Assembly: GCA_017551625.1 (NCBI GenBank)
Contig: JAFZLF010000020.1
Location: 1,427 to 65,426, forward strand
Source of the DNA: Clostridiales bacterium
GTDB taxonomy: Bacteria; Bacillota; Clostridia; Saccharofermentanales; Saccharofermentanaceae
Reading direction: 5' to 3'
Length of the DNA: 64,000 nt
Shown: piece by piece, positions 18,505-41,008 of the stretch
Position numbering within the stretch: position 1 is the stretch's first letter
Layout of the letters: every line of letters starts with the position of its first letter
Made by a program: the position numbers and the translations under genes
The notes under the pieces: generated by a model
What the model saw: the letters and a program-made list of their open reading frames with translations, nothing else
Told to the model about the DNA's origin: nothing
Database searches by the model: none

Positions 18505-20715
18505 ATGAGCAAGTATTTAGTCATAGTAGAGTCACCTGCGAAGGCCAAGACGATCGGCAGGTATTTAGGAAAAGATTACCGGATCGCCGCATCTGTCGGA
18601 CATATCCGTGATCTGCCTTCTTCTACCATTGGCGTGGATGTGCGGCATGATTTCAAACCTACATATATCAATATGCGCGGTAAGGAGAAGGTCATCCGTG
18701 AGCTTAAAGAACTGGCCGCTTCTGCGGAACGCGTCTATATCGCTACCGACCCTGACCGTGAGGGTGAAGCGATTGCCTGGCATATTGCCAAGGTCCTGAA
18801 TATAGATCTTACTGAAAACTGCCGTATCTCCTTTAACGAGATCACTGAAAAAGCAATAAAGAATGCGATACTGGCACCGCGCACGATCGATATCGATCTG
18901 GTGAATGCGCAGCAGGCACGCCGTGTCCTTGACCGTCTGGTCGGTTATGAACTGAGCCCGCTTCTTTGGAAGAAAGTGCAGAAGGGGCTGTCGGCCGGCC
19001 GTGTCCAGTCTGTCGCAACGAAACTTGTCGTTGACCGGGAAAAGGAGATCGAGGCGTTCGTTCCGGAGGAATACTGGAATATCAATGCCGAGCTTACTCC
19101 TGTCGATGAGAAGTTCCCTTTTAAGGCGAGATATCACGGCGAGAAGAAGGGCACACGGATCGAGAAGGTCAAAGTGGGAAGTAAAGAAGAAACCGATGCG
19201 CTTCTGGCCGCGCTCGAAGGTGGAGAGTATGTCGTAGACTCGATCAAAAAGGGTAGAAAACTTCGTCAGCCATTCGCGCCGTTTACGACCAGTACGCTGC
19301 AACAGGAGGCCTCCAGAAGGATCAGTTTCACCTCCAGGAAGACGATGAGCGTCGCCCAGCAGCTCTACGAAGGTGTAGAGATTGCAGGTCAGGGCCAGAT
19401 CGCGCTTGTTTCCTACATCCGTACTGACTCAGTCCGTATCTCTGACGAGGCGATGGCCGCGGCCAGACGTCTGATCGGGGAAAAGTACGGAGAGAAATAT
19501 CTTCCGAAGTCTCCGAGAAAGTATACGAATAAGAATTCCGCGCAGGACGCGCACGAAGCGATCCGTCCGGCGCACTTCGAGCTGAATCCGGAATCGATCC
19601 GTTCCTCGCTGAGTCTCGATCAGTACAGGCTCTACAAGCTGATATGGGACCGTTTCCTGTCTTCGCAGATGGCTTCGGCCGAGGTGGATACGGTGTCTCT
19701 CGATGTCAGATGCAATCGTTCGATCTTCCGCGCCCAGGGCGAGACGATCAAGTTCCAGGGTTTCCTGGCGGCCTATGCTGATCTGGCGGAGGATGTCAGT
19801 GAAGATGAAAAGAATGCCAAGGCCAAGCTTCCCGAACTACTGGACGGTCAGGCCCTGAAACTTCTGGATATCAAATCGGAGCAGAAGTTTACTTTGCCAC
19901 CGGCGAGATACACGGAGGCCACATTGATCAAGACTCTGGAAGAAAAAGGGATCGGACGTCCGTCTACATATGCTCCGACGATCTCGACGATCCTTGAGAG
20001 ACAGTATATCGATAAGGACGGTAAAGTCATCCATCCTACAGAGCTCGGCAAGGTCGTTACAGATCTTCTGGCGGACAACTTTACGGAGATCGTGGATGTT
20101 TCCTTTACTGCGGATATGGAGTCAAAGCTCGATGAGATCGAAGTCGGCAAGAAGGACTGGGTCAAGGTCCTTTCGGATTTTTATCCTTCCTTCCATGAGC
20201 TTATCGAGAAAGCCGATACTGCAGTAACGAAGGTCAAGATGGAAGAGAAGAAGACCGGCGAGAAGTGTCCCGAGTGCGGCGGTGATCTCGTGATCAAGAG
20301 AGGCCGTTTCGGTGAATTTGAAGCCTGCTCCAATTTCCCGGAGTGCAGTTTCACCAGAAATCTCGAAGTAGTAGCGAAGGGGACCTGCCCGACATGCGGT
20401 TCCGGTCTGGTCTCGCACCGTTCCAGAAAGTACAAGGGACGTGTGTTCTATACCTGTGATAAGAAGGGCAGTAACCCGGATTGCGATTTCATCAGCTGGT
20501 ATCTGCCGGTCGATGGCCAGAAGTGCGAAGCATGCGGAAGTTATATGATCTGGAAGCGTTTCCGCGGACGTGCATATCCGAAGTGTGCCAATCCGGAGTG
20601 CGTTAAGAATAAGACGAAGAGATCCTCGAAGTCCGATGACGGAGAGGGAGGCGCTTCTTCTGAGAAGAAGACGACGCGTAGAAAATCCGGTTCCGAGAAG
20701 AACAAAGAGGAGTGA
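18505..20715 (+). CDS. topA: DNA topoisomerase I
   Basis: 736 aa. It has a TOPRIM N-terminus (LVIVESPAKAKTI), the active-site region SYIRTDS, and C-terminal Cys4 zinc ribbons (CPECGG..., CPTCGS...). Confidence 0.97.
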   Translation: MSKYLVIVESPAKAKTIGRYLGKDYRIAASVGHIRDLPSSTIGVDVRHDFKPTYINMRGKEKVIRELKELAASAERVYIATDPDREGEAIAWHIAKVLNIDLTENCRISFNEITEKAIKNAILAPRTIDIDLVNAQQARRVLDRLVGYELSPLLWKKVQKGLSAGRVQSVATKLVVDREKEIEAFVPEEYWNINAELTPVDEKFPFKARYHGEKKGTRIEKVKVGSKEETDALLAALEGGEYVVDSIKKGRKLRQPFAPFTTSTLQQEASRRISFTSRKTMSVAQQLYEGVEIAGQGQIALVSYIRTDSVRISDEAMAAARRLIGEKYGEKYLPKSPRKYTNKNSAQDAHEAIRPAHFELNPESIRSSLSLDQYRLYKLIWDRFLSSQMASAEVDTVSLDVRCNRSIFRAQGETIKFQGFLAAYADLAEDVSEDEKNAKAKLPELLDGQALKLLDIKSEQKFTLPPARYTEATLIKTLEEKGIGRPSTYAPTISTILERQYIDKDGKVIHPTELGKVVTDLLADNFTEIVDVSFTADMESKLDEIEVGKKDWVKVLSDFYPSFHELIEKADTAVTKVKMEEKKTGEKCPECGGDLVIKRGRFGEFEACSNFPECSFTRNLEVVAKGTCPTCGSGLVSHRSRKYKGRVFYTCDKKGSNPDCDFISWYLPVDGQKCEACGSYMIWKRFRGRAYPKCANPECVKNKTKRSSKSDDGEGGASSEKKTTRRKSGSEKNKEE

Positions 20716-20719
20716 TCCC

Positions 20720-22051
20720 ATGTCCAAACCGGAAATCATAGTCATCGGTGCCGGTCTGGCCGGCTCGGAGGCAGCGTATCAGGCGTCGAGACTGGGCGTT
20801 GGTGTCCGTCTCTTCGAGATGAAGAAGAAAAGGAAAAGTCCTGCGCATCACAGCGATGGCTTTGCCGAACTTGTCTGTAGTAATTCCTTGCGTTCCAATC
20901 AGCTCGAGAACGGTGTCGGCCTTCTCAAAGAAGAGCTCCGCATCCTCGGTTCTCTTATCATGGAGTCCGCAGACAGAAGTGCCGTGCCTGCCGGTGGTGC
21001 GCTTGCTGTAGACCGAGAAGAATTCTCTTCGTATATCACGGATAAGATCGTAAATGACCCGAATATCGAAGTTATTCACGATGAAGTCCATAAGATCCCG
21101 GATGACGCGATCGTAGTGATAGCGACCGGACCGCTCACGGATGGGGATCTTTATGACGATATCATGGAGAGGATCGGACATCAGGATATGCATTTCTTTG
21201 ATGCAGCTGCGCCGATCGTTCTGAAGTCCAGTATCGATCTTTCGATCTGTTTCGCTATGTCCCGCTATGGAAAAGGCGGAAACGATTATCTGAACTGTCC
21301 CATGAATGAGGAAGAATACCGCCGATTCTATGAGGCGCTCGTTTCGGCCGAACTTGCGGATGTAAAGGATTTTGACAAGGAGACGGTCTTCGAAGGCTGC
21401 ATGCCGATCGAGACGATGGCGAAGCGTGGATATGACACGATGCGTTTCGGTCCGCTCAAGCCTGTCGGTCTGATCGATCCGAGAACCGGTGAAGAGCCGT
21501 ATGCCTGCGTGCAGCTCCGCCAGGATGACCGCATGGCTTCGATCTATAATATCGTAGGTTTTCAGACGAGACTTCGTTTCCCGGAACAGCAGCGTGTCTT
21601 CCGCATGATTCCCGGCCTTGAAAATGCCGAGTTTACCCGCTTTGGAGTCATGCATCGGAATACGTATATTGAATCGCCGCGTCTTCTTGATTCCTCCTAT
21701 CGGATGAGAGATTATCCGAATGTGTTCTTTGGAGGACAGATCACGGGGGTCGAGGGGTATATCGAGTCCACGGCATCAGGTTATATCGCCGGATATTACG
21801 CTGCTCTTCAGGCGCTTTCGCAGGAAAGCCCTGTGACATTCTCCGCAAACACGATGATTGGAGCGATGGCTCAGTATTGCTCCGATCCCGTGGTGAAGAA
21901 TTTCGTGCCGATGAATGCCAACTTCGGACTCATTGCTCCGCTCGGATACCGGGTGAAGGGGAAAAAGAAAGAAAAGTACCTGGCTTATGCGGAGCGCGCG
22001 CTTGCTGAAGTGCGGGAAAACAAAGAAAAAATGGAGAGTCTGTGGAAATGA
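20720..22051 (+). CDS. trmFO: Methylenetetrahydrofolate--tRNA-(uracil54-C5)-methyltransferase TrmFO
   Basis: MSKPEIIVIGAGLAGSEAA FAD-binding fold in conserved topA-trmFO synteny. I chose the ATG at 20720 rather than ORF-track 20570, which lies inside topA. Confidence 0.95.
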   Translation: MSKPEIIVIGAGLAGSEAAYQASRLGVGVRLFEMKKKRKSPAHHSDGFAELVCSNSLRSNQLENGVGLLKEELRILGSLIMESADRSAVPAGGALAVDREEFSSYITDKIVNDPNIEVIHDEVHKIPDDAIVVIATGPLTDGDLYDDIMERIGHQDMHFFDAAAPIVLKSSIDLSICFAMSRYGKGGNDYLNCPMNEEEYRRFYEALVSAELADVKDFDKETVFEGCMPIETMAKRGYDTMRFGPLKPVGLIDPRTGEEPYACVQLRQDDRMASIYNIVGFQTRLRFPEQQRVFRMIPGLENAEFTRFGVMHRNTYIESPRLLDSSYRMRDYPNVFFGGQITGVEGYIESTASGYIAGYYAALQALSQESPVTFSANTMIGAMAQYCSDPVVKNFVPMNANFGLIAPLGYRVKGKKKEKYLAYAERALAEVRENKEKMESLWK

Positions 22052-22917
22052 CGCAAAGACCTTTTGATGCCTCGCAGTGGGAAGAAACCGGTAAAATCAA
22101 GGGATTCTGGCGCTCTTATGCGCGTGATTGGGGGAAAGTATGTGGATGCAATGCACTCCTAATGGGGGTGAACATGCTCTCGTTCGTGATCGGTATCTGT
22201 CTGGTCATGTTCCTGCTTCCATTGATCTTTACCTCATTTACCCCGGCCGGCCTTAAGGATTTTATACTCGAGACGGAAATGGTCGAGGCGACCAGTGTCA
22301 CAGATGAAGCAGTAGAGAATATTTTCTATACTTTATGCATGCTCAGTTCTTTTTTTATGATTGGGATGCTTTTGGTCGTTAACGGACCTTTCTATTCCGC
22401 GGTCAGTTTCTATTTCCGTAATCTGATCACGGGAGAAGGTGACTTCCGAGTTGACTTCAAGAAAGGTCTGAAAGAAAACTGGAAGAAGTCTCTGGCCGCA
22501 TCTATACTGTCGATCGTGGTGACTGTTGTGATCCTTTTCAATATCGGGTACTACCAGCGAGCAGAGATGGGTACGCTCTCGCTCGCGGCGAAATCTTTCT
22601 TTACGGTGCTTCTGTCGTTCTGGTGCTGGATACAGCTTTTCGTGTATCCGCTGATCGCCTGTGTCGAGCTCTCTTTCAAAGAAGTGTACCGTAATGCCGT
22701 GATCATGTCCGTCAAGAATTTCCCGGTCGTGATCGGCGTTTTCTTCCTGCAGATCATACTCTTCGGCGTCATCCCATATGGATTGATGTTTTCTTTCGGA
22801 ACGATCGGGTATGCGATCACCATGCTTCTTTATATGATTTTTTCATTCGGCTTTCTCAGTTATGTGGCGATGTATATCACATGGAAAGCCATACAGAAGA
22901 TCATCCAGTCACAGTGA
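22042..22917 (+). CDS. Integral membrane protein, DUF624/YesL-like
   Basis: 291 aa, about six TM helices, with a short soluble N-terminus containing FW..Y motifs. It overlaps the trmFO end by 10 nt. Confidence 0.5.
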   Translation: MEMTQRPFDASQWEETGKIKGFWRSYARDWGKVCGCNALLMGVNMLSFVIGICLVMFLLPLIFTSFTPAGLKDFILETEMVEATSVTDEAVENIFYTLCMLSSFFMIGMLLVVNGPFYSAVSFYFRNLITGEGDFRVDFKKGLKENWKKSLAASILSIVVTVVILFNIGYYQRAEMGTLSLAAKSFFTVLLSFWCWIQLFVYPLIACVELSFKEVYRNAVIMSVKNFPVVIGVFFLQIILFGVIPYGLMFSFGTIGYAITMLLYMIFSFGFLSYVAMYITWKAIQKIIQSQ

Positions 22918-23067
22918 CATCACTTTTCAAAGACGGACTGTATCGTAAATCAACAAGCAAGAGTGACCTCGTTTAAGAAAATCGCATCTTTTTGATTAGT
23001 TTGTTGTACTTTTACAAACAAATACGGTAAAATAAAGGATAATACGTAAAAGTGAGGTAGTAGCCGT

Positions 23068-24747
23068 ATGATTCAGTGTGTACGTGGTCATTTCTTTGAT
23101 GAGAATCGATATGCAGACTGCCCTTATTGCAGTCAGGCGTCCAGCAAACCGAGAGCGGTCACGCCGCCTGTTGCCCCAAATATGGAGATCCCGAAACCGT
23201 CGTGCGGTAAAACGGTCGCGGTTGAGGGCGTCGCAACAGAACCGGCCGTTAGTAAGACGGTAGCAATCGAGAATTTCGAGGAGACTCTTCCTCCGGTAAA
23301 TAAGACAGTAGCTATCAGTGAGCAGCCCTCGGCTTATACCCCGGGCCCGTCTCCGGATGGACTTCCGAGCATGGCTCCGGCCGCAGTTCCGGTTCCGGCT
23401 CCTGCTCCGGTGCCTCCGATGGCCGCGCCTGTAGCTCAGGAAGTGCCGGCTGTACCGGTGGCTGCGCCTGTTGCTCCTATAGAAACTCCTGTTGTACCCG
23501 TTGAGTTCCAGCCGGCTCCGATGGCAGCGCCCGTAGCTCCGATGGATGCTCCGGTTGCACCTGTTGCGCCTGTTGTGCAAGCCCCGGACGCACCCGTTGC
23601 TCCGGTAGTTCCTGCCGCCCCGGTGGAACGTCCGATCCCATCTTATACAGCAGATCTGCGGGCTGAAATTCCTTTTGACGGTGTGTCGGATACTCCGGAA
23701 AGAGTTCTGACAGAAGAGATTTCCGTAGATATTCCTGTCACGGGTCTGGGTGTTTCCGATCATCCGACACCGCTTGCTTCGGAAGAGAATTACTATCATT
23801 CCAATCCGGATAGACCCTATGCCGTTACCGGATTAGGTGTAAAAGAAAACCCGACTCCGATCCCGAATGATACGGGCGCGACGTTCCCGATCCCAGGTGG
23901 AGAAGGCCAGAGTGTCCCGGCTGGGCAGCCCGCATCTGCGGAAGCCGCAGCGTTTGCTGCGTTTGGATTCCCGGGTGGACCGATGCCCGGAATGATGCCG
24001 GGTGGACCGATGCCCGGAGCTCCGATGCCGGGTGCGCCTGTTCCACCGCCGGCTCCGATCGCATCGCCTGTTGATGCCACCCCGGCCCCGATAGCAGAAC
24101 CGGCCCCGATCGTGGAAGAAACTCCGGTCGAGCCGATTCCCGAACCGGCCCCGATGGCGGAGGCCGTAACTCCGGCTGCCCCGATACCGGAACCTGCCCC
24201 GATGGCGGAGGTCGTAGCTCCGGCTGCTCCGATGCCGGAACCGGCTCCGATCGTGGAGGAGGCTCCCGCGGCTCAGGCTGCTGAGATTCCTGCTGCTCCG
24301 GTGGCCGAAGCACCTGTGGCGCCTGTTCCCGGACCGATGTTTGTGGATACAAAACCGAGAGATCCGAATGCTACTGTCGCGATGACCGAGTCCGATATGG
24401 ACTATATGCCGCGTGTACATGCCAGAGCTTTTCTGGTGTGCGTAGACGGCCCTATGACCGGCGCGAGCTTCGTGTTCCAGGAGAACCGGGCTATCGTCGG
24501 ACGTCAGAAGAACTATGAGATAGCGCTTTTCCGTGATAATTCCGTATCGAGAAGTCCGCATGCGATTATTGCTTACGACAAGGATGCAGTGCGTTATACG
24601 GTTGCCCAGGGTGATCCGGAGAAGAAGGTGTCCGTCAACGGTACCTTTATCAATGCGGAACAGGAACTCAAACTGTACGATATCATCGGTATCGGACAGA
24701 CGAGGATGCTCTTTATTCCGGTATGCAGTGAGAAGTTTGCATGGTAA
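23068..24747 (+). CDS. Zinc-ribbon / Pro-Ala-rich linker / C-terminal FHA-domain protein
   Basis: 559 aa. The N-terminus is MIQCVRGHFFDENRYADCPYC (C-x3-H-x9-C-x2-C). About 400 aa of P/A/V-rich low complexity follow. The C-terminal FHA carries the GR...SRSPH...NG signature (IVGRQ, SRSPHA, VNGT). Confidence 0.85.
   Translation: MIQCVRGHFFDENRYADCPYCSQASSKPRAVTPPVAPNMEIPKPSCGKTVAVEGVATEPAVSKTVAIENFEETLPPVNKTVAISEQPSAYTPGPSPDGLPSMAPAAVPVPAPAPVPPMAAPVAQEVPAVPVAAPVAPIETPVVPVEFQPAPMAAPVAPMDAPVAPVAPVVQAPDAPVAPVVPAAPVERPIPSYTADLRAEIPFDGVSDTPERVLTEEISVDIPVTGLGVSDHPTPLASEENYYHSNPDRPYAVTGLGVKENPTPIPNDTGATFPIPGGEGQSVPAGQPASAEAAAFAAFGFPGGPMPGMMPGGPMPGAPMPGAPVPPPAPIASPVDATPAPIAEPAPIVEETPVEPIPEPAPMAEAVTPAAPIPEPAPMAEVVAPAAPMPEPAPIVEEAPAAQAAEIPAAPVAEAPVAPVPGPMFVDTKPRDPNATVAMTESDMDYMPRVHARAFLVCVDGPMTGASFVFQENRAIVGRQKNYEIALFRDNSVSRSPHAIIAYDKDAVRYTVAQGDPEKKVSVNGTFINAEQELKLYDIIGIGQTRMLFIPVCSEKFAW
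24091..24267 (+). repeat. In-frame tandem repeat (about 3.5 copies of a 45-48-nt unit) inside the FHA-protein gene
   Basis: The 24136-24183 and 24184-24231 units encode IPEPAPMAE(A/V)V(T/A)PAAP. More diverged copies flank them (IAEPAPIVEETPVEP, MPEPAPIVEEAP). Confidence 0.85.
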
Positions 24748-25685
24748 TTGATTGGAACACAATTAAGGATACGTTTCTTAAGTATGTGAGCGGCATGCGC
24801 TGGATCTTCCTCGGATGTGCAGGTGCGATCCTCCTGATCGTGGTGGTCGTGCTTATCCTTCGGAGTATGAAGAAAAAGAAAGTCGAACCTTCGGGAAAAA
24901 CGGAAGAAACGAAGCCTATCCATAAGAGCATGGTCATGGATAATGGCCGATTCCGTATAGAGATCGGAAATGTTCAGGGAACCGGTGACAGAGAAGAACA
25001 GCAGGATGCTTTTGCCTTCTCGCCGACGGCAAAATGGAAGGAGAAGGGATTCCTCGCAGTGCTCTGTGATGGGATGGGCGGTCTCGACGCAGGTGCAGCG
25101 ATCTCTAATAAGCTCGTGTCCGATATTATCGCCGAGTTTCCGTATTCTTTCGAAGAACTCAAGGATGGCTGGATCCTCGATTCTCTTTCCAATGAGATCT
25201 ATGAGAACTACCGAGGCCGTGGCGGCACGACGGTGATCATCACATATCTGAAGGACGATAAGATGTGGTTCGCCTCTGTGGGAGACAGTGATCTTCTGCT
25301 TTTGCGAGACGGCCGTATCTATGCCATGAATGTGCGTCAGGAGTATGGAAATACACTTTTGAATAGAGCTCTTGACGGCGCGGTATCGGTCGAGCAGGCC
25401 CTGACGCATCGGGATGCGCCTGCGCTTACGGAATTTATGGGCGCTCAGCACGCTAATCCTGACTATTCGATCGTACCGTGGGATGTCAAGGATAAGGATG
25501 TGTATCTGTTGTGCTCGGACGGAATCAGTGATACCCTTTCCTTCGAGGAGATCCGTGAAGCGATGAAGCATGATCCTTCAGAGTGTGCCGAGATCCTCGA
25601 GAAGGGGATCATGACGAAAAATAAACGTTATCAGGATAACTACACAGCTATCATTTTCGCTGTGCATGAAATAGGAGGTAATTAG
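24741..25685 (+). CDS. Membrane-anchored PP2C-family Ser/Thr phosphatase
   Basis: 314 aa. One N-terminal TM helix (WIFLGCAGAILLIVVVVLIL) is followed by PP2C motifs EEQQDAF, LCDGMGG, GGTTVI, ASVGDSDLLL, LLCSDGISD and DNYTAIIF. It overlaps the upstream gene by 7 nt. Confidence 0.88.
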   Translation: MVIDWNTIKDTFLKYVSGMRWIFLGCAGAILLIVVVVLILRSMKKKKVEPSGKTEETKPIHKSMVMDNGRFRIEIGNVQGTGDREEQQDAFAFSPTAKWKEKGFLAVLCDGMGGLDAGAAISNKLVSDIIAEFPYSFEELKDGWILDSLSNEIYENYRGRGGTTVIITYLKDDKMWFASVGDSDLLLLRDGRIYAMNVRQEYGNTLLNRALDGAVSVEQALTHRDAPALTEFMGAQHANPDYSIVPWDVKDKDVYLLCSDGISDTLSFEEIREAMKHDPSECAEILEKGIMTKNKRYQDNYTAIIFAVHEIGGN

Positions 25686-25686
25686 T

Positions 25687-27120
25687 ATGAAGTGGGTAAG
25701 AAGAATCTTTATGTTCCTCTTGATTCTTGCAATTGGCGGTTCCGGCTTTATGGCTTTCCGCAATTTCAAGCCCTGGCGTGATGCACAGGAGGAACTGGAT
25801 GAGGTCAAGAGTGAGACATTCCAGGCCAAGGATGTGAAGAGAAGCTTCACTCCTCAGGAGAATCAGCACTCTGTCGCATTTGTTTTCTGTCAGAACGGCA
25901 GTTCGTGGGCGGCAGGTTCCTGCTACGCAGTCGGAGATCCGGATGGAAAAGTCCAGTACTTCGTAACAAACGGACATGTTGTCGAGCCATTCATGGAAGA
26001 AGGCTATTCTATCACGATCTATTTTGATGATCTGGAAAACATCGTTCCTGAGGTCATTTTCTATGAGTTTGATGAGAATCTGGATATGGCTATCCTGAAG
26101 CTCCCCGAGCCGGTCGACATGAGAACGGCCCTGATCATCCGTGATTCTGCCGAGGTAGAGACTGGTGAAAAGTGTACAGCGATCGGTTATCCGGATAAGG
26201 CGATGGAGTTTGACGGAAACTTTATTGGCGATATGGCCGGTCAGACAGTCTCCAGCGGCGTTATCTCCAAGGTAGACTTTGTTCCGAGTGCTGTCGGTGT
26301 GGCGTACCACACATTCCAGCATGACACATTTACCTCTCATGGTAACTCCGGCGGACCGCTCCTCGACGGAAACGGCTTCCTCATCGGTATGAATACCCTG
26401 GGCAATCCGGAATCGGAGAGCGTAAACTATGCGATCACTTCTGCAGAGATCATGCAGAGACTCGATGAGAATAATGTTGACTATGTGACCAGTAAGGAAT
26501 ATCTCGGTGCCATCGACAAGTCTATCGCAGCCGATCAGAAGAAGTTTGACAAGAAGCATGACGCAGCTGTCGAGGAAGCGGAAACGGAAGTTACCGAGAC
26601 AAGGAATAAGTTCCTGCTCTTCTGCGCGATCGCAGCGGCCTGCGCTATCGTTCTCCTGATCCTCTTCATCGTCGGCAACAAGAAGGTCGTTATGGTCGGT
26701 GAACAGGATGATGGAAAGAAGTCTTTCGTGTACTGCACGAAGGGTGTATTTGCGGGACAGAAATTTGAGGTGACCGGTCAGACGATGACGATCGGCCGTG
26801 ACCAGAACTCCTGTACGATCGTATTCCCTGAACAGACTCCTGGTATCAGCTCGAACCACTGCTCGATCTACTTCGATGCGAGAACCAAGGCGTTCGTCCT
26901 TACGGATAACGGTTCCACATACGGCACATATCTCAGTGATGGCAGAAAGCTGACGAAGGGCGTTCCGGAGAAACTTCTCCCGGGTTCCACTTTTGCTCTG
27001 GCCGATAAGGCAAACGAGTTCCTCGTAGACAGAGAAGAGGGCGACGGTAAGAAGAAAGAAAAGAAAGAAAAGAAGTCTAAGAAAGCTGCGGAGATTCCGA
27101 CAGATACTTCGATTCAATAA
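25687..27120 (+). CDS. Bitopic trypsin-like (S1/S1C) serine protease fused to a cytoplasmic FHA domain
   Basis: 477 aa. The order is TM1 (aa ~7-24), a protease domain with candidate triad His97 (TNGHVV), Asp133 (DMAILKL) and Ser221 (GNSGGPLLD), TM2 (FLLFCAIAAACAIVLLILFIVG), then an FHA domain (TIGRD, SSNHC, DNGSTYGT) and a K/E-rich tail. Confidence 0.85.
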   Translation: MKWVRRIFMFLLILAIGGSGFMAFRNFKPWRDAQEELDEVKSETFQAKDVKRSFTPQENQHSVAFVFCQNGSSWAAGSCYAVGDPDGKVQYFVTNGHVVEPFMEEGYSITIYFDDLENIVPEVIFYEFDENLDMAILKLPEPVDMRTALIIRDSAEVETGEKCTAIGYPDKAMEFDGNFIGDMAGQTVSSGVISKVDFVPSAVGVAYHTFQHDTFTSHGNSGGPLLDGNGFLIGMNTLGNPESESVNYAITSAEIMQRLDENNVDYVTSKEYLGAIDKSIAADQKKFDKKHDAAVEEAETEVTETRNKFLLFCAIAAACAIVLLILFIVGNKKVVMVGEQDDGKKSFVYCTKGVFAGQKFEVTGQTMTIGRDQNSCTIVFPEQTPGISSNHCSIYFDARTKAFVLTDNGSTYGTYLSDGRKLTKGVPEKLLPGSTFALADKANEFLVDREEGDGKKKEKKEKKSKKAAEIPTDTSIQ

Positions 27121-27138
27121 AGGTAGATAGATAGCAAG

Positions 27139-27846
27139 ATGGATCACTATTCATACACCAATGTGGGTGGCCACGAGCCGAACTGCGACTACGCGCAGGT
27201 CATCGAACATGACGACCAGGTCCTGATCGTTCTGTGCGATGGGCTGAATGGCCTTCCCAGCGGTGATCAGGCATCAAAGATCATATCAGACGCAGCGATG
27301 GAGGCTTTCCTTCAAGGAAAGTCTCCTGCTGACGCCTGTATCTTCGCCAATGAGAAATTCCGCGGGATGCAGTTCGATAATGTCGATCTTCGACGCGCGG
27401 GGGCGACGATCTGTGCGGTAAGGATCGCGGACGGTAAGTGCTCCTGGGCCAATGTGGGTGATTCACATATCTACCATTTTTCAAAAGGCAAACTCATGCA
27501 CCACTCCGTCGATGATACGCCGACCTATAAGGCCTATTCCCGCGGTGATTTCGATTATGAGGGGATCCGCGAGCAGGATGACCGGACCGGAATGACTGTC
27601 TGTATAGGACAGAAGGAAACGGTCGAGCCTCATGTGGAATCCTTCAATATGGAGGAAGGCGATGCGATCCTGGTCTGTTCGGATGGCCTGTGGGAATATG
27701 TGTATGAGACGGAGATGCTTATCGATCTTCACAAATCCTTCAATTCTAAAGAATGGGCGGAGAAGATGCTCCTTCGGGCGACACAGAGGAGTCACCTCAA
27801 GGGAGACAATATGACTTTAGTAACTTATTTCAGGCTGGCAGGTTAA
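27139..27846 (+). CDS. Soluble PP2C-family Ser/Thr phosphatase (second copy)
   Basis: 235 aa with no TM helix. Motifs are LCDGLNG, GATICAV, ANVGDSHIY, LVCSDGLWEY and GDNMTLV. Confidence 0.85.
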   Translation: MDHYSYTNVGGHEPNCDYAQVIEHDDQVLIVLCDGLNGLPSGDQASKIISDAAMEAFLQGKSPADACIFANEKFRGMQFDNVDLRRAGATICAVRIADGKCSWANVGDSHIYHFSKGKLMHHSVDDTPTYKAYSRGDFDYEGIREQDDRTGMTVCIGQKETVEPHVESFNMEEGDAILVCSDGLWEYVYETEMLIDLHKSFNSKEWAEKMLLRATQRSHLKGDNMTLVTYFRLAG

Positions 27847-27850
27847 CGAC

Positions 27851-30235
27851 ATGGACACGAATAATCTCTGTTTCGGATGTTTTAGAGAACACAATAATGT
27901 TGGTCCGTGTCCGCACTGCGGGTATGACCTGGCGACGGCCAAGCATCCTTTCGTAGCGCTTCCTATCGGTACGATCCTTAACGGCCGTTATCTGACTGGC
28001 CGTGTCCTTGGTGTGGGTGGCTTTGGCGTAACGTATCTGGCTTTTGATATGACGCTGGAGATCGCCGTGGCGGTCAAGGAGTTCCTGCCTTCTGGCATCG
28101 CGCTTCGTGAGTCAGACCGCTACACCATGACGGTCAGCTCACCGGAAGAACAGCCGAAATTTGATACCGGTGCGACGAAGTTCCTCGATGAGGCCAGACT
28201 TCTCGCCAAACTCCGTGATGTGCCGAACATCGTGACGGTTCAGGACTATTTCCGTGAGAACAACACAGCCTACTTCGTCATGGAGTATATCGAGGGCGTC
28301 GACCTCATGAAGTATGCGCAGAATAAGGGCGGAACGCTCTCCTATAACGAGGCGCTGTACCTGATCCTGCCTGTTATCGATTCTCTGGCACATGTGCACG
28401 CGCACAATCTCCTTCACAGAGATATCAGCCCGGACAATATTGTCGTCATGAAGAATGGCTCGACGAGACTTCTTGACTTCGGCGCAGCGCGTGTGGCAAT
28501 CGATACCGAGAAGAGTAAGTCCATCATCCTCAAGCATGGTTTCGCGCCGGAAGAACAGTACAGGAAACACGGCAATCAGGGGCCTTGGTCCGATGAGTAC
28601 GCACTGGCCGCTACGATGTATCTGATCATCACTGGTGTGATGCCGCCGGATGCGATCGAGCGTGTGCACGAAGATACGCTGGTCTCCCCGAAGGATCTCG
28701 GCGTGGATATCCCGGATTATGCGAATGACGCCCTGATGAAAGCACTGTCCGTCCATGCTTCCGGACGCTTCCCGGATATGGCTTCTTTCTCTGTTGCGTT
28801 GACGGGCAATCAACCGGTCGGATCTTCTGTTTCCTATGCCCCATCTATGACTGTGTCATCGCAGGATGCGTTCCCATCCGGTGTGGTTTCCGGGCAGGAC
28901 GGTCCGATGGTCGAGGGAAAGACTGTCGGTATGGAGCAGGACCAGATATCACAACCGTATGCGCCGCAGAAGATGATCTCGCCGTCGATTCTTGCTGGAG
29001 AGAACGGAAAATCGGATGCGGAAGAGAAATCGGAAGTAGAAAAGCCGAAGACGAAAAAGAAGAAAAGTATATGGAAGAGACCGGTCACTTATATCCTGAT
29101 GGGTATAGTGGCATTGGCTATCGCGGCATTCCCAATCGGAAACTATATCACGGAAAACTACGAGTGGGGGCCGACTACGACCACTGCGAAGAAAACCTCG
29201 AAAAAAACGTCCAAGGAGACGTCTAAGCCTACGACACCTCCTTCTGAAACGATCCCGGATCCACAGATAGAGGAAAATGGAGATAGTATCACCTATAACG
29301 ACACGGTCCGTACGTTCTCCCTTTCTGCTCCGGCGAAGTATTCCTTTACAAATAAGGATGGCCTTTTCACGCTGGTCCGGGACGATCAGGCGACGTCGAT
29401 CTACATCAATGCGGTCAAGAGTGTCGGTGATTACCGTGTAGAAACGTTAAATGATATGATCGCGCAGAGCGAAGATGTCATCAAAACGTATCTGCTGAAC
29501 ACACTCGGATTGTCTGAGGTAGAGGTCAACGATGACTATCTCTACATAACTACGCTCGGTGTCGGTTCGACTACGCTGGAATTTGATGTTTCTGCGTCTT
29601 CGGATACAGGAAAGGTGAATGTGACTTTCCTGGCTGTCGAGAGAAAAGCCGATACAGGAGTTTTCCTCCTCTGCGGTATCATGCCGATCGATGATTACCG
29701 TATGTATTCCGGAGATGACTGGGAAGATATTAAGAACGTGCTCATGACTTTTGTCGAGAATTCGGATGTCCCGTCTTCGTACTCCTATTATTACGGTGAC
29801 AACATGCCGGACTTCCTCTATAACAGTAATTTTGTAAGCGAAGTCGAGGAAGTGACGATCGGGAATAATCTGGATTGTCTGGATCTGCATCTTGTCAATC
29901 TGGAAGATAAAGAATGTAAGGTCCAGGTCGTCAATCTCGGTGAGCAGGACTCGATCACCAATGCATGTACCGCAGCCGAGCAGGTCCTCGGAGCGAATTA
30001 TAAGTTCGGTGGGTATACTTCTGTCACGCCTACAGTCCGTAAAAGCTATGAGATGCGAATCCGGAATTATACACTGACAAAGATCTATGATGAGGATGTC
30101 ATCGTGGAGTGTACAGTCTGCGTCATCAACATGAACGGGACGTACTATGCGGTCATCGCTACTTGTGATGATGATGCGGTGCTTGAAAGAGTCACGCTCG
30201 ACTTTACTATGGTCGTGAGAACACTGACAGACTGA
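27851..30235 (+). CDS. Hanks-type Ser/Thr protein kinase with an N-terminal zinc ribbon, one TM helix and a ~370-aa unrecognised extracellular domain
   Basis: 794 aa. It has CFGC-x11-CPHC, the Gly loop GVGGFGVTY, AVKEF (catalytic Lys), HRDISPDNIVV, DFGAAR and APEE. The TM helix is YILMGIVALAIAAFPIGNYI. A Thr/Ser/Lys-rich stalk precedes an ectodomain with no PASTA repeats. Confidence 0.9.
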   Translation: MDTNNLCFGCFREHNNVGPCPHCGYDLATAKHPFVALPIGTILNGRYLTGRVLGVGGFGVTYLAFDMTLEIAVAVKEFLPSGIALRESDRYTMTVSSPEEQPKFDTGATKFLDEARLLAKLRDVPNIVTVQDYFRENNTAYFVMEYIEGVDLMKYAQNKGGTLSYNEALYLILPVIDSLAHVHAHNLLHRDISPDNIVVMKNGSTRLLDFGAARVAIDTEKSKSIILKHGFAPEEQYRKHGNQGPWSDEYALAATMYLIITGVMPPDAIERVHEDTLVSPKDLGVDIPDYANDALMKALSVHASGRFPDMASFSVALTGNQPVGSSVSYAPSMTVSSQDAFPSGVVSGQDGPMVEGKTVGMEQDQISQPYAPQKMISPSILAGENGKSDAEEKSEVEKPKTKKKKSIWKRPVTYILMGIVALAIAAFPIGNYITENYEWGPTTTTAKKTSKKTSKETSKPTTPPSETIPDPQIEENGDSITYNDTVRTFSLSAPAKYSFTNKDGLFTLVRDDQATSIYINAVKSVGDYRVETLNDMIAQSEDVIKTYLLNTLGLSEVEVNDDYLYITTLGVGSTTLEFDVSASSDTGKVNVTFLAVERKADTGVFLLCGIMPIDDYRMYSGDDWEDIKNVLMTFVENSDVPSSYSYYYGDNMPDFLYNSNFVSEVEEVTIGNNLDCLDLHLVNLEDKECKVQVVNLGEQDSITNACTAAEQVLGANYKFGGYTSVTPTVRKSYEMRIRNYTLTKIYDEDVIVECTVCVINMNGTYYAVIATCDDDAVLERVTLDFTMVVRTLTD

Positions 30236-30266: not shown

Positions 30267-32455
<2,189 letters not shown>

Positions 32456-38249: not shown

Positions 38250-38600
38250 TGAGCTGGACCGGATGATCGCGGGCACAGGTGCCGAAAGGCCGTGCGTGAG
38301 GAAAGTCCGGGCTCCATAGGACAAGGGTGCCGGGCAGTTCCCGGTGAAGGTAACTTTAAGGAAAGTGCAACAGAAAAGAAGACCGCCGTTTCCTTCGGGA
38401 TTCGGTAAGGATGAAAAGGCGAGGTAAGAGCTCACCGGCGGTACGGTAACGTACCGGCCTTGTAAACCCCACCCGGAGCAACGCCATGGAAAGACATTAC
38501 TGTGGTCCGCAGGTCTTGAGGAGGCGGCTTGAGCCGGAACGAAATTTCCGGTCTAGATAGATGATCATCTTCTACAGAACCCGGCTTACAGGTTCAACTT
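38250..38600 (+). ncRNA. rnpB: RNase P RNA, bacterial type A
   Basis: Universal blocks are present: GAGGAAAGTCCGGGCTCCATAGG, AGTGCAACAGAAA, GGTAAGAGCTCACCGG and ACAGAACCCGGCTTA. P1 can form between 38251-38260 (GAGCTGGACC) and 38591-38600 (GGTTCAACTT). A TATAAT lies at 38232-38237. Ends are approximate (about +/-5 nt). Confidence 0.93.
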
Positions 38601-38695
38601 AGAAGACTTTTTCTCGCTCGAGCCATGTATTCATGACGGGCAGAATAGAGATAAAAACCTCGCATCGAGGACGATAGAAAGAGAGGACATGTTTC

Positions 38696-40932: not shown

Positions 40933-41008
40933 GTACCTTTAGCTCAGTTGGTAGAGCAACTGACTCTTAATCAGTGGGCCCAGGGTTCGAGTCCCTGAAG
41001 GTGCACCA
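40933..41008 (+). tRNA. tRNA-Lys (anticodon CTT), CCA encoded
   Basis: I folded the 76-nt cloverleaf by hand. The acceptor stem is GTACCTT/AAGGTGC, the D arm GCTC-AGTTGGTA-GAGC, the anticodon stem ACTGA/TCAGT with loop CTCTTAA, and the T arm CAGGG-TTCGAGT-CCCTG, ending ACCA. Confidence 0.93.

Follow-up and report, generated by a model that had tools for sequence, protein, structure and literature searches.

A recurrent bacterial gene cassette combining a Ser/Thr kinase, PP2C phosphatases, an FHA adaptor and a predicted membrane protease-FHA fusion

A cluster of five genes, called the cassette here, was analysed in a stretch of 64,000 nucleotides from an uncultured Clostridiales bacterium (assembly GCA_017551625.1, contig JAFZLF010000020.1, positions 1,427 to 65,426), which is referred to as the window. 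The genes were designated g1 to g5 in 5′ to 3′ order, and loci used for comparison carry L-numbers. Together the five genes encode a Ser/Thr kinase, two phosphatases and two proteins with a phosphothreonine-reading FHA domain, one of which is fused to a protease.

23068–24747, + strand: g1, 559 aa, adaptor with a zinc knuckle, [KR]TV[AG] repeats, a Pro/Ala-rich part and an FHA domain
24741–25685, + strand: g2, 314 aa, N-terminally membrane-anchored PP2C phosphatase
25687–27120, + strand: g3, 477 aa, bitopic protease-FHA fusion
27139–27846, + strand: g4, 235 aa, soluble PP2C phosphatase
27851–30235, + strand: g5, 794 aa, zinc-ribbon Hanks Ser/Thr kinase

The table of open reading frames (ORFs) gave exactly the packing on the + strand that an earlier sequence-only reading of this DNA had described, with an overlap of 7 nt between g1 and g2, followed by gaps of 1, 18 and 4 nt. 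That five ORFs with recognizable domains lie in one direction at such distances and are conserved across genomes is not a chance feature. ORFs of up to 498 aa also run antisense to g1–g3 (25651–27147, 23833–24762 and 24594–25571, all on the − strand). As the + strand genes have strong homologues, these ORFs, which were without independent support, were dismissed as most likely shadow ORFs and put down to the GC-balanced coding strand.

The protease-FHA fusion g3 has two transmembrane helices by hydropathy (aa ~6–25 and ~309–329), which bracket an HtrA-like S1 protease domain (aa ~56–261, nt ~25852–26469; Trypsin_2 in Pfam, 1.1e-19). A helical stalk leads into the second helix (aa 269–329) and a short linker connects it to the FHA domain (aa 344–451, nt ~26716–27039; FHA in Pfam, 2e-12). 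The catalytic triad H97, D133 and S221 (GNSGGP) was invariant in 19 homologues, as were R371, S388 and H391 of the FHA domain, in which G370-R371 and an invariant TDNGSxxGT were also recognized. The AF2 model (pLDDT 85.5) shows a long helix on either side of the protease, a disordered linker and the FHA domain. FHA domains have their ligands in the cytoplasm only, and the protease lies between the two helices; from this topology its domain is predicted to be extracytoplasmic and to face outward.

By Foldseek, the best matches of g3 were DegQ, DegP, Deg1 and M. tuberculosis HtrA (E ~1e-14), with a TM-score of up to 0.78 against DegS lacking its PDZ domain. The protein thus shares triad and fold with the HtrA/DegS/DegP proteases (S1C) and would be membrane-anchored and outward-facing like Gram-positive HtrA and MarP. 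It differs from these in having no PDZ domain; none was matched in Pfam, and the model has the second transmembrane helix and the cytoplasmic FHA domain at the PDZ position. Scores against the NCBIfam HtrA, DegP and DegS models were 30–68 bits, far below the cut-offs of 357–800, and no characterised HtrA with this arrangement was found in the literature searched. When 1.84 billion representative proteins were searched with a profile, 1563 clusters were obtained at E ≤ 1e-30. Nearly all of the best 150 of these clusters (50% identity) were full-length matches with E < 1e-79, and because they span the full profile the fusion is considered a large family. Contigs were also scanned with the g3 alignment, but the GNSGGP pattern filled the results with generic HtrA proteases, and only L001 and L002 were informative.

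The kinase g5 starts with a CxxC-x9-CxxC zinc ribbon (aa 7–23), of which C7, C10, C20 and C23 were at least 90% conserved in 31 orthologues. In the kinase domain (aa ~45–310; Pkinase in Pfam, 1.5e-29) all Hanks motifs were intact upon alignment to PpkA, the kinase of type VI secretion (T6SS; PDB 5hnv): GVGGFG, the Lys of VAVKE, the Glu of EARLLA, HRDISPDN, DFG and APE. PpkA was also the best PDB sequence match (1.1e-39), with markedly weaker similarity to PknB, StkP and PknA (about 1e-21 to 1e-16). A single transmembrane helix was located by hydropathy at aa ~411–433, and the 360-aa ecto-region beyond it was modelled by AF2 (pLDDT 88.1) as two tandem alpha/beta modules (aa ~472–631 and ~644–791, nt ~29261–30232) of the PsbP/Mog1p/DcrB/DUF1795 fold, similar by Foldseek to PsbP (1v2b, 1.5e-6) and CyanoP (2xb3, TM-score 0.70). 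No PASTA repeat was matched in Pfam, and the NCBIfam model PknB_PASTA_kin scored 144.7 against a cut-off of 450.

A kinase from a metagenome-assembled genome (MAG) named ‘Clostridiales bacterium’ (P0122) is 99% identical to g5. Over the zinc ribbon and kinase part, identity was 47–55% across most cassettes and 38% in L096. The ecto-domain is not conserved across cassettes, being PsbP-like, LRR_5, beta-propeller or RDD, and such a variable ecto-domain beside a conserved kinase part is a pattern typical of a sensor input. When the C-terminal 360 aa of g5 were used as a query, one match was obtained, against more than 30 covering orthologues for the full-length protein; this was attributed to a limitation of the word index rather than to rarity.

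HtrA-family proteases such as DegS are sensors of the envelope, and their fold is the closest to that of g3. This favours an outside-in co-receptor, in which the ecto-protease would sense or process an extracellular protein, a peptide or the PsbP-like ecto-domain of the kinase. The FHA domain would then tether g3 to the phosphorylated kinase, and proteolysis would tune or end signalling by shedding or feedback, as in site-1 cleavage by DegS. In the window the PsbP/Mog1-type ecto-domain, a protein- or ligand-binding fold, is predicted on the same membrane face as the protease, and ECF-like sigma-factor genes lie beside two cassettes (L096 and L085). These sigma-factor neighbours are not conserved, however, and the PDZ domain by which DegS-type proteases sense is absent from g3. 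Moreover, the kinase ecto-domains differ completely between cassettes while the protease is conserved, and a specific protease/ecto-domain pair is therefore disfavoured. A co-receptor of this kind is considered unlikely.

The adaptor g1 has an N-terminal CxxxH-x9-CxxC zinc knuckle (aa 4–21, nt 23077–23130). Its ligands C4, H8, C18 and C21 were invariant in 8 distant orthologues, and the knuckle was present in every g1 orthologue examined, the acidobacterial one included. Three KTVA[VI] motifs follow, with the Lys at aa 48, 63 and 79 (nt ~23200–23325), then a Pro/Ala-rich disordered region of about 340 aa (aa ~90–430) and a C-terminal FHA domain (aa ~452–550, nt ~24421–24717). This domain resembled Yop-YscD_cpl (2.1e-7) and FHA (8e-4) in Pfam and retained GR, SR..H and NGT in an alignment to OdhI. 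No transmembrane helix was found by hydropathy. At the DNA level the Pro/Ala-rich part consists of tandem repeats (24085–24260, period 48, 3.7 copies, 78% matches; a further one at 23971–24034, period 15, 4.5 copies), and the length of g1 among relatives varies (559, 540, 497 and 487 aa). From this build and variation the linker is taken as an expandable spacer. The g1 orthologues in distant cassettes are ~180 aa long, without the Pro/Ala expansion.

The motif [KR]T[VI][AGSP] was enriched in all 12 g1 orthologues tested. In 10 of them the observed count was reached by none of 2000 shuffles, with P = 0.0005 for L094 and P = 0.03 for L093; the g1 of the window has three motifs, against 0.09 expected from the shuffles. 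In its strict form, [KR]-T-[VI]-[AGSP], the motif occurs one to four times in each orthologue, the acidobacterial one again included; looser [KR]-T-[AM]-P copies add to these in L002, and in every g1 orthologue examined the last copy, GKTVG[IAM].., stands immediately N-terminal of the FHA domain. A related motif, MVxGKTV, is found in the juxtamembrane linker of g5 (aa ~353–361, nt ~28907–28933), where G, T and V of GKTV were at least 90% conserved in the 31 orthologues within an otherwise variable linker. Most of the distant cassette kinases have a looser [KR]-T-x-[AG] in the same linker (RTTA in L089), and in L088 there is no basic residue before the Thr. Bacterial FHA domains prefer pT-x-x-[ILV], which KTVA[VI] fits. 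The Thr residues of these motifs in g1 and in the kinase linker are thus candidate phospho-acceptor and FHA-docking sites.

Of the phosphatases, g2 has a transmembrane helix (aa ~19–41, hydropathy) followed by KKKK, an order which places its catalytic PP2C domain (aa ~80–310) in the cytoplasm. Its motifs REEQQD, DGMGG, GDS, SDG and DN are intact, and it is 41–47% identical to its orthologues in distant cassettes. The g4 protein (PP2C_2 in Pfam, 2.7e-11) has no transmembrane helix by hydropathy and intact NCD, DGLNG, GDS, SDG and DN motifs, and both phosphatases score above the Pfam PP2C cut-offs. The fourth slot is variable. It holds a protein of 107–134 aa in L085, L086 and L089, of which that of L085 is faintly similar to the C-terminus of g4, and the g4 copy of L090 lacks the final DN motif. 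Pfam gave no match in these small proteins, nor in a 526-aa membrane protein of L095 that is discussed below. The g4 position is an accessory slot and not a core component.

The sequence-only reading had described one writer, two erasers and two readers. This division of roles agrees with the results above, as catalytic residues were present in the kinase, the phosphatases and the protease, and only one of the two phosphatases has a membrane anchor. The two readers were likewise found as described, one on a zinc-knuckle, Pro/Ala-rich scaffold and one on an ecto-protease, with a reservation for the FHA domain of g1 that is given below. The absence of PASTA repeats from the kinase and the two N-terminal zinc ribbons, with conserved ligands in both families, were also as predicted.

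The combination of FHA adaptor, PP2C, protease-FHA fusion and zinc-ribbon kinase recurred in 14 further distinct loci (L001, L002, L081, L083, L085, L086, L088, L089, L090, L091/L092, L093, L094, L095 and L096), in 10 of which the surrounding genes are unrelated. Close relatives (L001, L081 and L083/L084) have the same five-gene order and chromosomal position, with g3 proteins 54–82% identical; among these, L001 is a sheep-omasum MAG and the closest species-representative genome found. At 33–40% identity of g3, the cassette lies in wholly different surroundings (L085, L086/L087, L088, L089, L090, L091/L092, L094, L095 and L096), with the gene order of the window in L088 and L094. The order is permuted in L002 (Candidatus Oscillibacter avistercoris), where the kinase precedes g1–g4. 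In L093, a Blastocatellia MAG (Acidobacteria), two zinc-ribbon kinases, a g1-type adaptor, a PP2C and a protease-FHA-FHA protein stand side by side. The kinase of L091/L092 is named by NCBI as that of Neglectibacter timonensis, a cultured human-gut species which appears to carry the cassette, in a version with a second paralogous kinase and DUF3592 proteins; the assembly collection lists this kinase sequence in 3807 blocks.

A lack of co-conservation in related genomes, which would have spoken against the sequence-only reading, was not observed; the genes are strongly co-conserved. The core set is the g1 adaptor, a PP2C, the protease-FHA fusion and the zinc-ribbon kinase, whereas the second PP2C varies. 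The cassette occurs in many gut Clostridia without being specific to them, as L093 demonstrates.

An extended cassette was observed in L085 (11324–19544) and L091/L092 (5508–13129), with a second paralogous zinc-ribbon kinase, two to three DUF3592-like membrane proteins, conserved small ORFs of 103–108 aa and a double-zinc-ribbon (DZR) protein, and with large LRR_5 surface proteins after it. The DUF3592-like, DZR, small-ORF and LRR_5 proteins may be accessory components or targets. On the 1.05-Mb contig of L091 (12897–22151), transposases of the IS110 and Mutator types adjoin the cassette, together with a reverse transcriptase of the group II intron type, fragments of a TraG/VirD4-like coupling protein and a MobL relaxase, a mobile-element junction that is absent from the sister contig L092. 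A Lachnospira MAG (L039, 10001–12840) has an adjacent HtrA-like protease, PP2C and kinase which are 27–30% identical to g3, g2 and g5. This locus was not counted as a cassette and may represent a more distant protease-linked kinase/phosphatase arrangement.

The flanks of the cassette were found as the sequence-only reading had given them, with topA, trmFO and a DUF624/MusI-like gene upstream and the convergent tgt and queA downstream.

18505–20715: topA, upstream of the cassette
22042–22917: DUF624/MusI-like multi-pass membrane protein, 291 aa, directly 5′ of the cassette
23004–23033, + strand: promoter-like element, TTGTAC (23004–23009), an 18-nt spacer and TAAAAT (23028–23033)
30267–31391: tgt, convergent, downstream of g5
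31388–32455: queA, convergent, downstream of tgt

Between topA and the DUF624/MusI-like gene lies trmFO, and the neighbours over ~10 kb comprise comM, dprA, topA, trmFO, the DUF624-like gene, tgt, queA, dapA, dapB, yajC and dnaG. The trmFO ORF (20570–22051) is 493 aa long from a GTG and overlaps the end of topA; its orthologues in L081 and L083 have 443 aa, and the true start is probably near 20720, at an internal ATG. A DUF624/MusI-like gene adjoins the cassette in the close clade only (L081, L083 and L001), and the DUF624 gene of L089, ~6 kb downstream of the cassette on the opposite strand, is probably a coincidence. Further downstream in the window are ordinary housekeeping features, a class A RNase P RNA (38251–38604, 275 bits) and tRNA-Lys(CTT) (40933–41008).

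A sequence block, TGTACTTTT...TA[AG]AAT, is kept 35–65 nt 5′ of g1 in L081, L083 and L001, of which the proteins are 55–85% identical, and this suggests that the element at 23004–23033 is the promoter of g1. A generic scan for consensus promoters and terminators found such sites no more often than in shuffled sequence and did not flag this element. Inside the cassette it gave neither a promoter nor a terminator that stood out convincingly from chance, and the 31 nt that separate g5 from tgt contain no terminator. Both g1 (GAGG) and g3 (AGGAGG) are preceded by a Shine-Dalgarno-like sequence.

The sequence-only reading had likened this layout to the actinobacterial fhaA-fhaB-pstP-rodA-pbpA-pknA-pknB cluster (M. 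tuberculosis Rv0014c–Rv0020c). The likeness stands as far as the parts are concerned: both clusters have a transmembrane Hanks kinase, a membrane PP2C and two FHA proteins, one with a long disordered linker like g1 and one membrane-anchored like g3. The differences it had pointed out, no PASTA and no RodA/PbpA, also hold. The kinase domain, however, is nearer to PpkA than to PknB. The cassette also has zinc ribbons on g1 and g5, an ecto-protease on the membrane FHA protein and two PP2Cs, and g2 is anchored at its N-terminus, unlike PstP, of which the anchor is C-terminal.

These parallels (g1 with FhaA, g3 with FhaB/FipA, g2 with PstP, and the transmembrane kinase) would suit a regulator of cell-envelope growth or division, a counterpart of FhaA-FhaB-PstP-PknA/B in which g3 would act as a quality-control protease of septum or wall instead of RodA/PbpA. 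Both FHA domains match the NCBIfam model FhaB_Rv0019c, though weakly (19–30 bits against a cut-off of 125), and in the clade of the window the cassette lies among housekeeping genes. On the other hand, PASTA repeats are lacking, the kinase domain is PpkA-like and no SEDS or PBP gene was present in any cassette examined. Elsewhere, the cassette is found among sugar-utilisation, surface-protein, two-component or mobile-element genes, and with such varied surroundings it behaves as a movable module rather than as a fixed part of a division cluster. Such a role in envelope growth or division seems distinctly improbable.

A further reading is a system for phage defence or conflict, with the protease as an effector triggered by signalling of the kinase. 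PADLOC matched the kinase to PD-T4-6 and mad6 and the protease to RT-Protease and Avs1b, and genes of conjugative elements and transposases adjoin one Neglectibacter-type locus. The PADLOC matches are generic kinase and trypsin domain matches, however, with none for g1 and g2, and no other defence genes were seen adjoining the cassette. The protease is predicted to face outward, unlike the effectors of abortive infection, and in the window clade the cassette remains syntenic among housekeeping genes at only ~55% protein identity. Defence is considered a very remote prospect.

Parallels in single parts were found in two other systems. The T6SS pathway PpkA-PppA-Fha1 has the kinase domain closest to that of g5 and a PP2C reset, with both g2 and g4 matching PppA (6jkv), and its FHA scaffold, as phospho-target or reader, helps an envelope machine to assemble, which can be likened to the cassette. 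The cassette differs in its occurrence in a Gram-positive-type Clostridiales MAG, in a PsbP-like instead of a vWA ecto-domain and in its proposed protease output, and no T6SS genes were found within about 10 kb in the window or in syntenic relatives. For the FHA domain of g1, the best NCBIfam and PDB matches were to OdhI, albeit weak (E 5.5e-5 and 0.02). In GarA/OdhI a Thr motif stands immediately N-terminal of the FHA domain, a layout permitting self-binding of the phosphorylated protein, and the same layout is present in g1. In contrast to GarA/OdhI, g1 also bears a zinc knuckle and has several Thr motifs, and the cassette is not linked to 2-oxoglutarate dehydrogenase or to genes of the TCA cycle or glutamate metabolism.

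Taken together, we favour, tentatively and at slightly less than an even chance, a self-contained membrane-associated phosphothreonine switch of which the dedicated output is probably the extracytoplasmic protease. A signal at the ecto-domain of g5 would activate the kinase, which would phosphorylate the [KR]-T-V-[AG] motifs of its own juxtamembrane linker and of g1. The FHA domains of g3 and g1 would then dock on these phosphothreonines, forming a multivalent membrane-proximal assembly that clusters g3. HtrA proteases are activated through oligomerisation and allostery, usually by way of PDZ domains, and here the second transmembrane helix and the FHA domain stand in place of the PDZ domain. 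Clustering of g3 driven from the cytoplasm would therefore turn on proteolysis beyond the membrane, or position it, an inside-out control. Finally, g2 and g4 would erase the marks and reset the system.

In this switch g1 may serve as a multivalent cross-linker, as in Rv1747, an ABC transporter with two FHA domains and multiple phospho-Thr sites in its linker, which undergoes kinase-dependent multivalent clustering in the membrane. The Rv1747 module, with its FHA domains and phospho-acceptor linker, is a model for the clustering of g1 and g3. Its effector is an ABC exporter rather than an ecto-protease, and the cassette distributes its FHA domains and Thr motifs among three proteins. Since a Thr motif directly precedes its own FHA domain, g1 may also be a self-inhibited switch of the GarA/OdhI type, which would bind its own phosphothreonine and vie with g3 for the kinase.

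Several points weigh against the proposed switch. The direction of information flow is deduced from domain logic, the clustering or oligomerisation of g3 is likewise conjectural, and g1–g5 are assigned to one transcript from their spacing, the conserved order and the conserved promoter-like element. Among the neighbours of the cassette in the loci examined there is no conserved gene that would be a candidate substrate, and in L095 the 526-aa membrane protein occupies the adjacent slot where the kinase is expected. The FHA domain of g1 scores just below the Pfam cut-offs (20.2 against 20.7 and 31.5 against 33.2), which its orthologues exceed, and its S-R-x-x-H spacing is one residue longer than canonical; for these reasons phosphothreonine binding by g1 is plausible but not certain. 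Nevertheless, phosphorylation inside the cell gating a protease outside it, or the reverse, is in our view the most natural interpretation of this anatomy.

Kinase/PP2C/FHA operons are already a known kind and the domain families are well known. The vWA-kinase-FHA-PP2C operons (TerY-P-type triads; Deinococcus DRA0331–0334, bioRxiv 10.64898/2026.01.23.701218), as described, form a self-contained kinase/FHA/PP2C module as well; they have a vWA component instead of a protease, with no protease-FHA fusion and no g1-type adaptor. The FHA and PP2C passages of PMC7159879 describe no protease-FHA fusion and no such cassette. In a full-text search, which covers the searched collection only, neither the fusion nor the g1 adaptor family nor the cassette was found described, in line with the earlier reading, whose author knew of no characterised system of this composition. 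The protease-FHA cassette is uncharacterised; both its wide occurrence and its suggestive mechanism are of note, and a cultured species that appears to carry it makes it testable.

A broader principle of phosphothreonine-gated extracellular proteolysis across phyla can be formulated, in which the allosteric PDZ sensor of HtrA is swapped for a transmembrane helix and a cytoplasmic FHA reader. The protease would be switched on from within, through phospho-dependent clustering, by a Hanks kinase that is itself tuned by an adaptor resembling GarA, with a zinc knuckle and multiple phospho-sites. We regard this generalisation as doubtful. The outputs of Hanks kinases in bacteria are usually diffuse and hard to define; if true, the proposed switch would mean that one Ser/Thr kinase of bacteria has an effector dedicated and hard-wired to it. 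With the FHA reader fused to the effector across the membrane, the output of the pathway would be written in the gene, which makes the coupling of kinase and effector directly testable, and the repeated KTVA motifs are concrete, mutable phospho-site predictions. It also suggests a new type of HtrA regulation, from the cytoplasm through FHA and phosphothreonine and not through PDZ. Since the family is large, common in human and animal gut Clostridia and extends to the Acidobacteria, the cassette may be a surface-remodelling or signalling device that is perhaps widespread in gut commensals.

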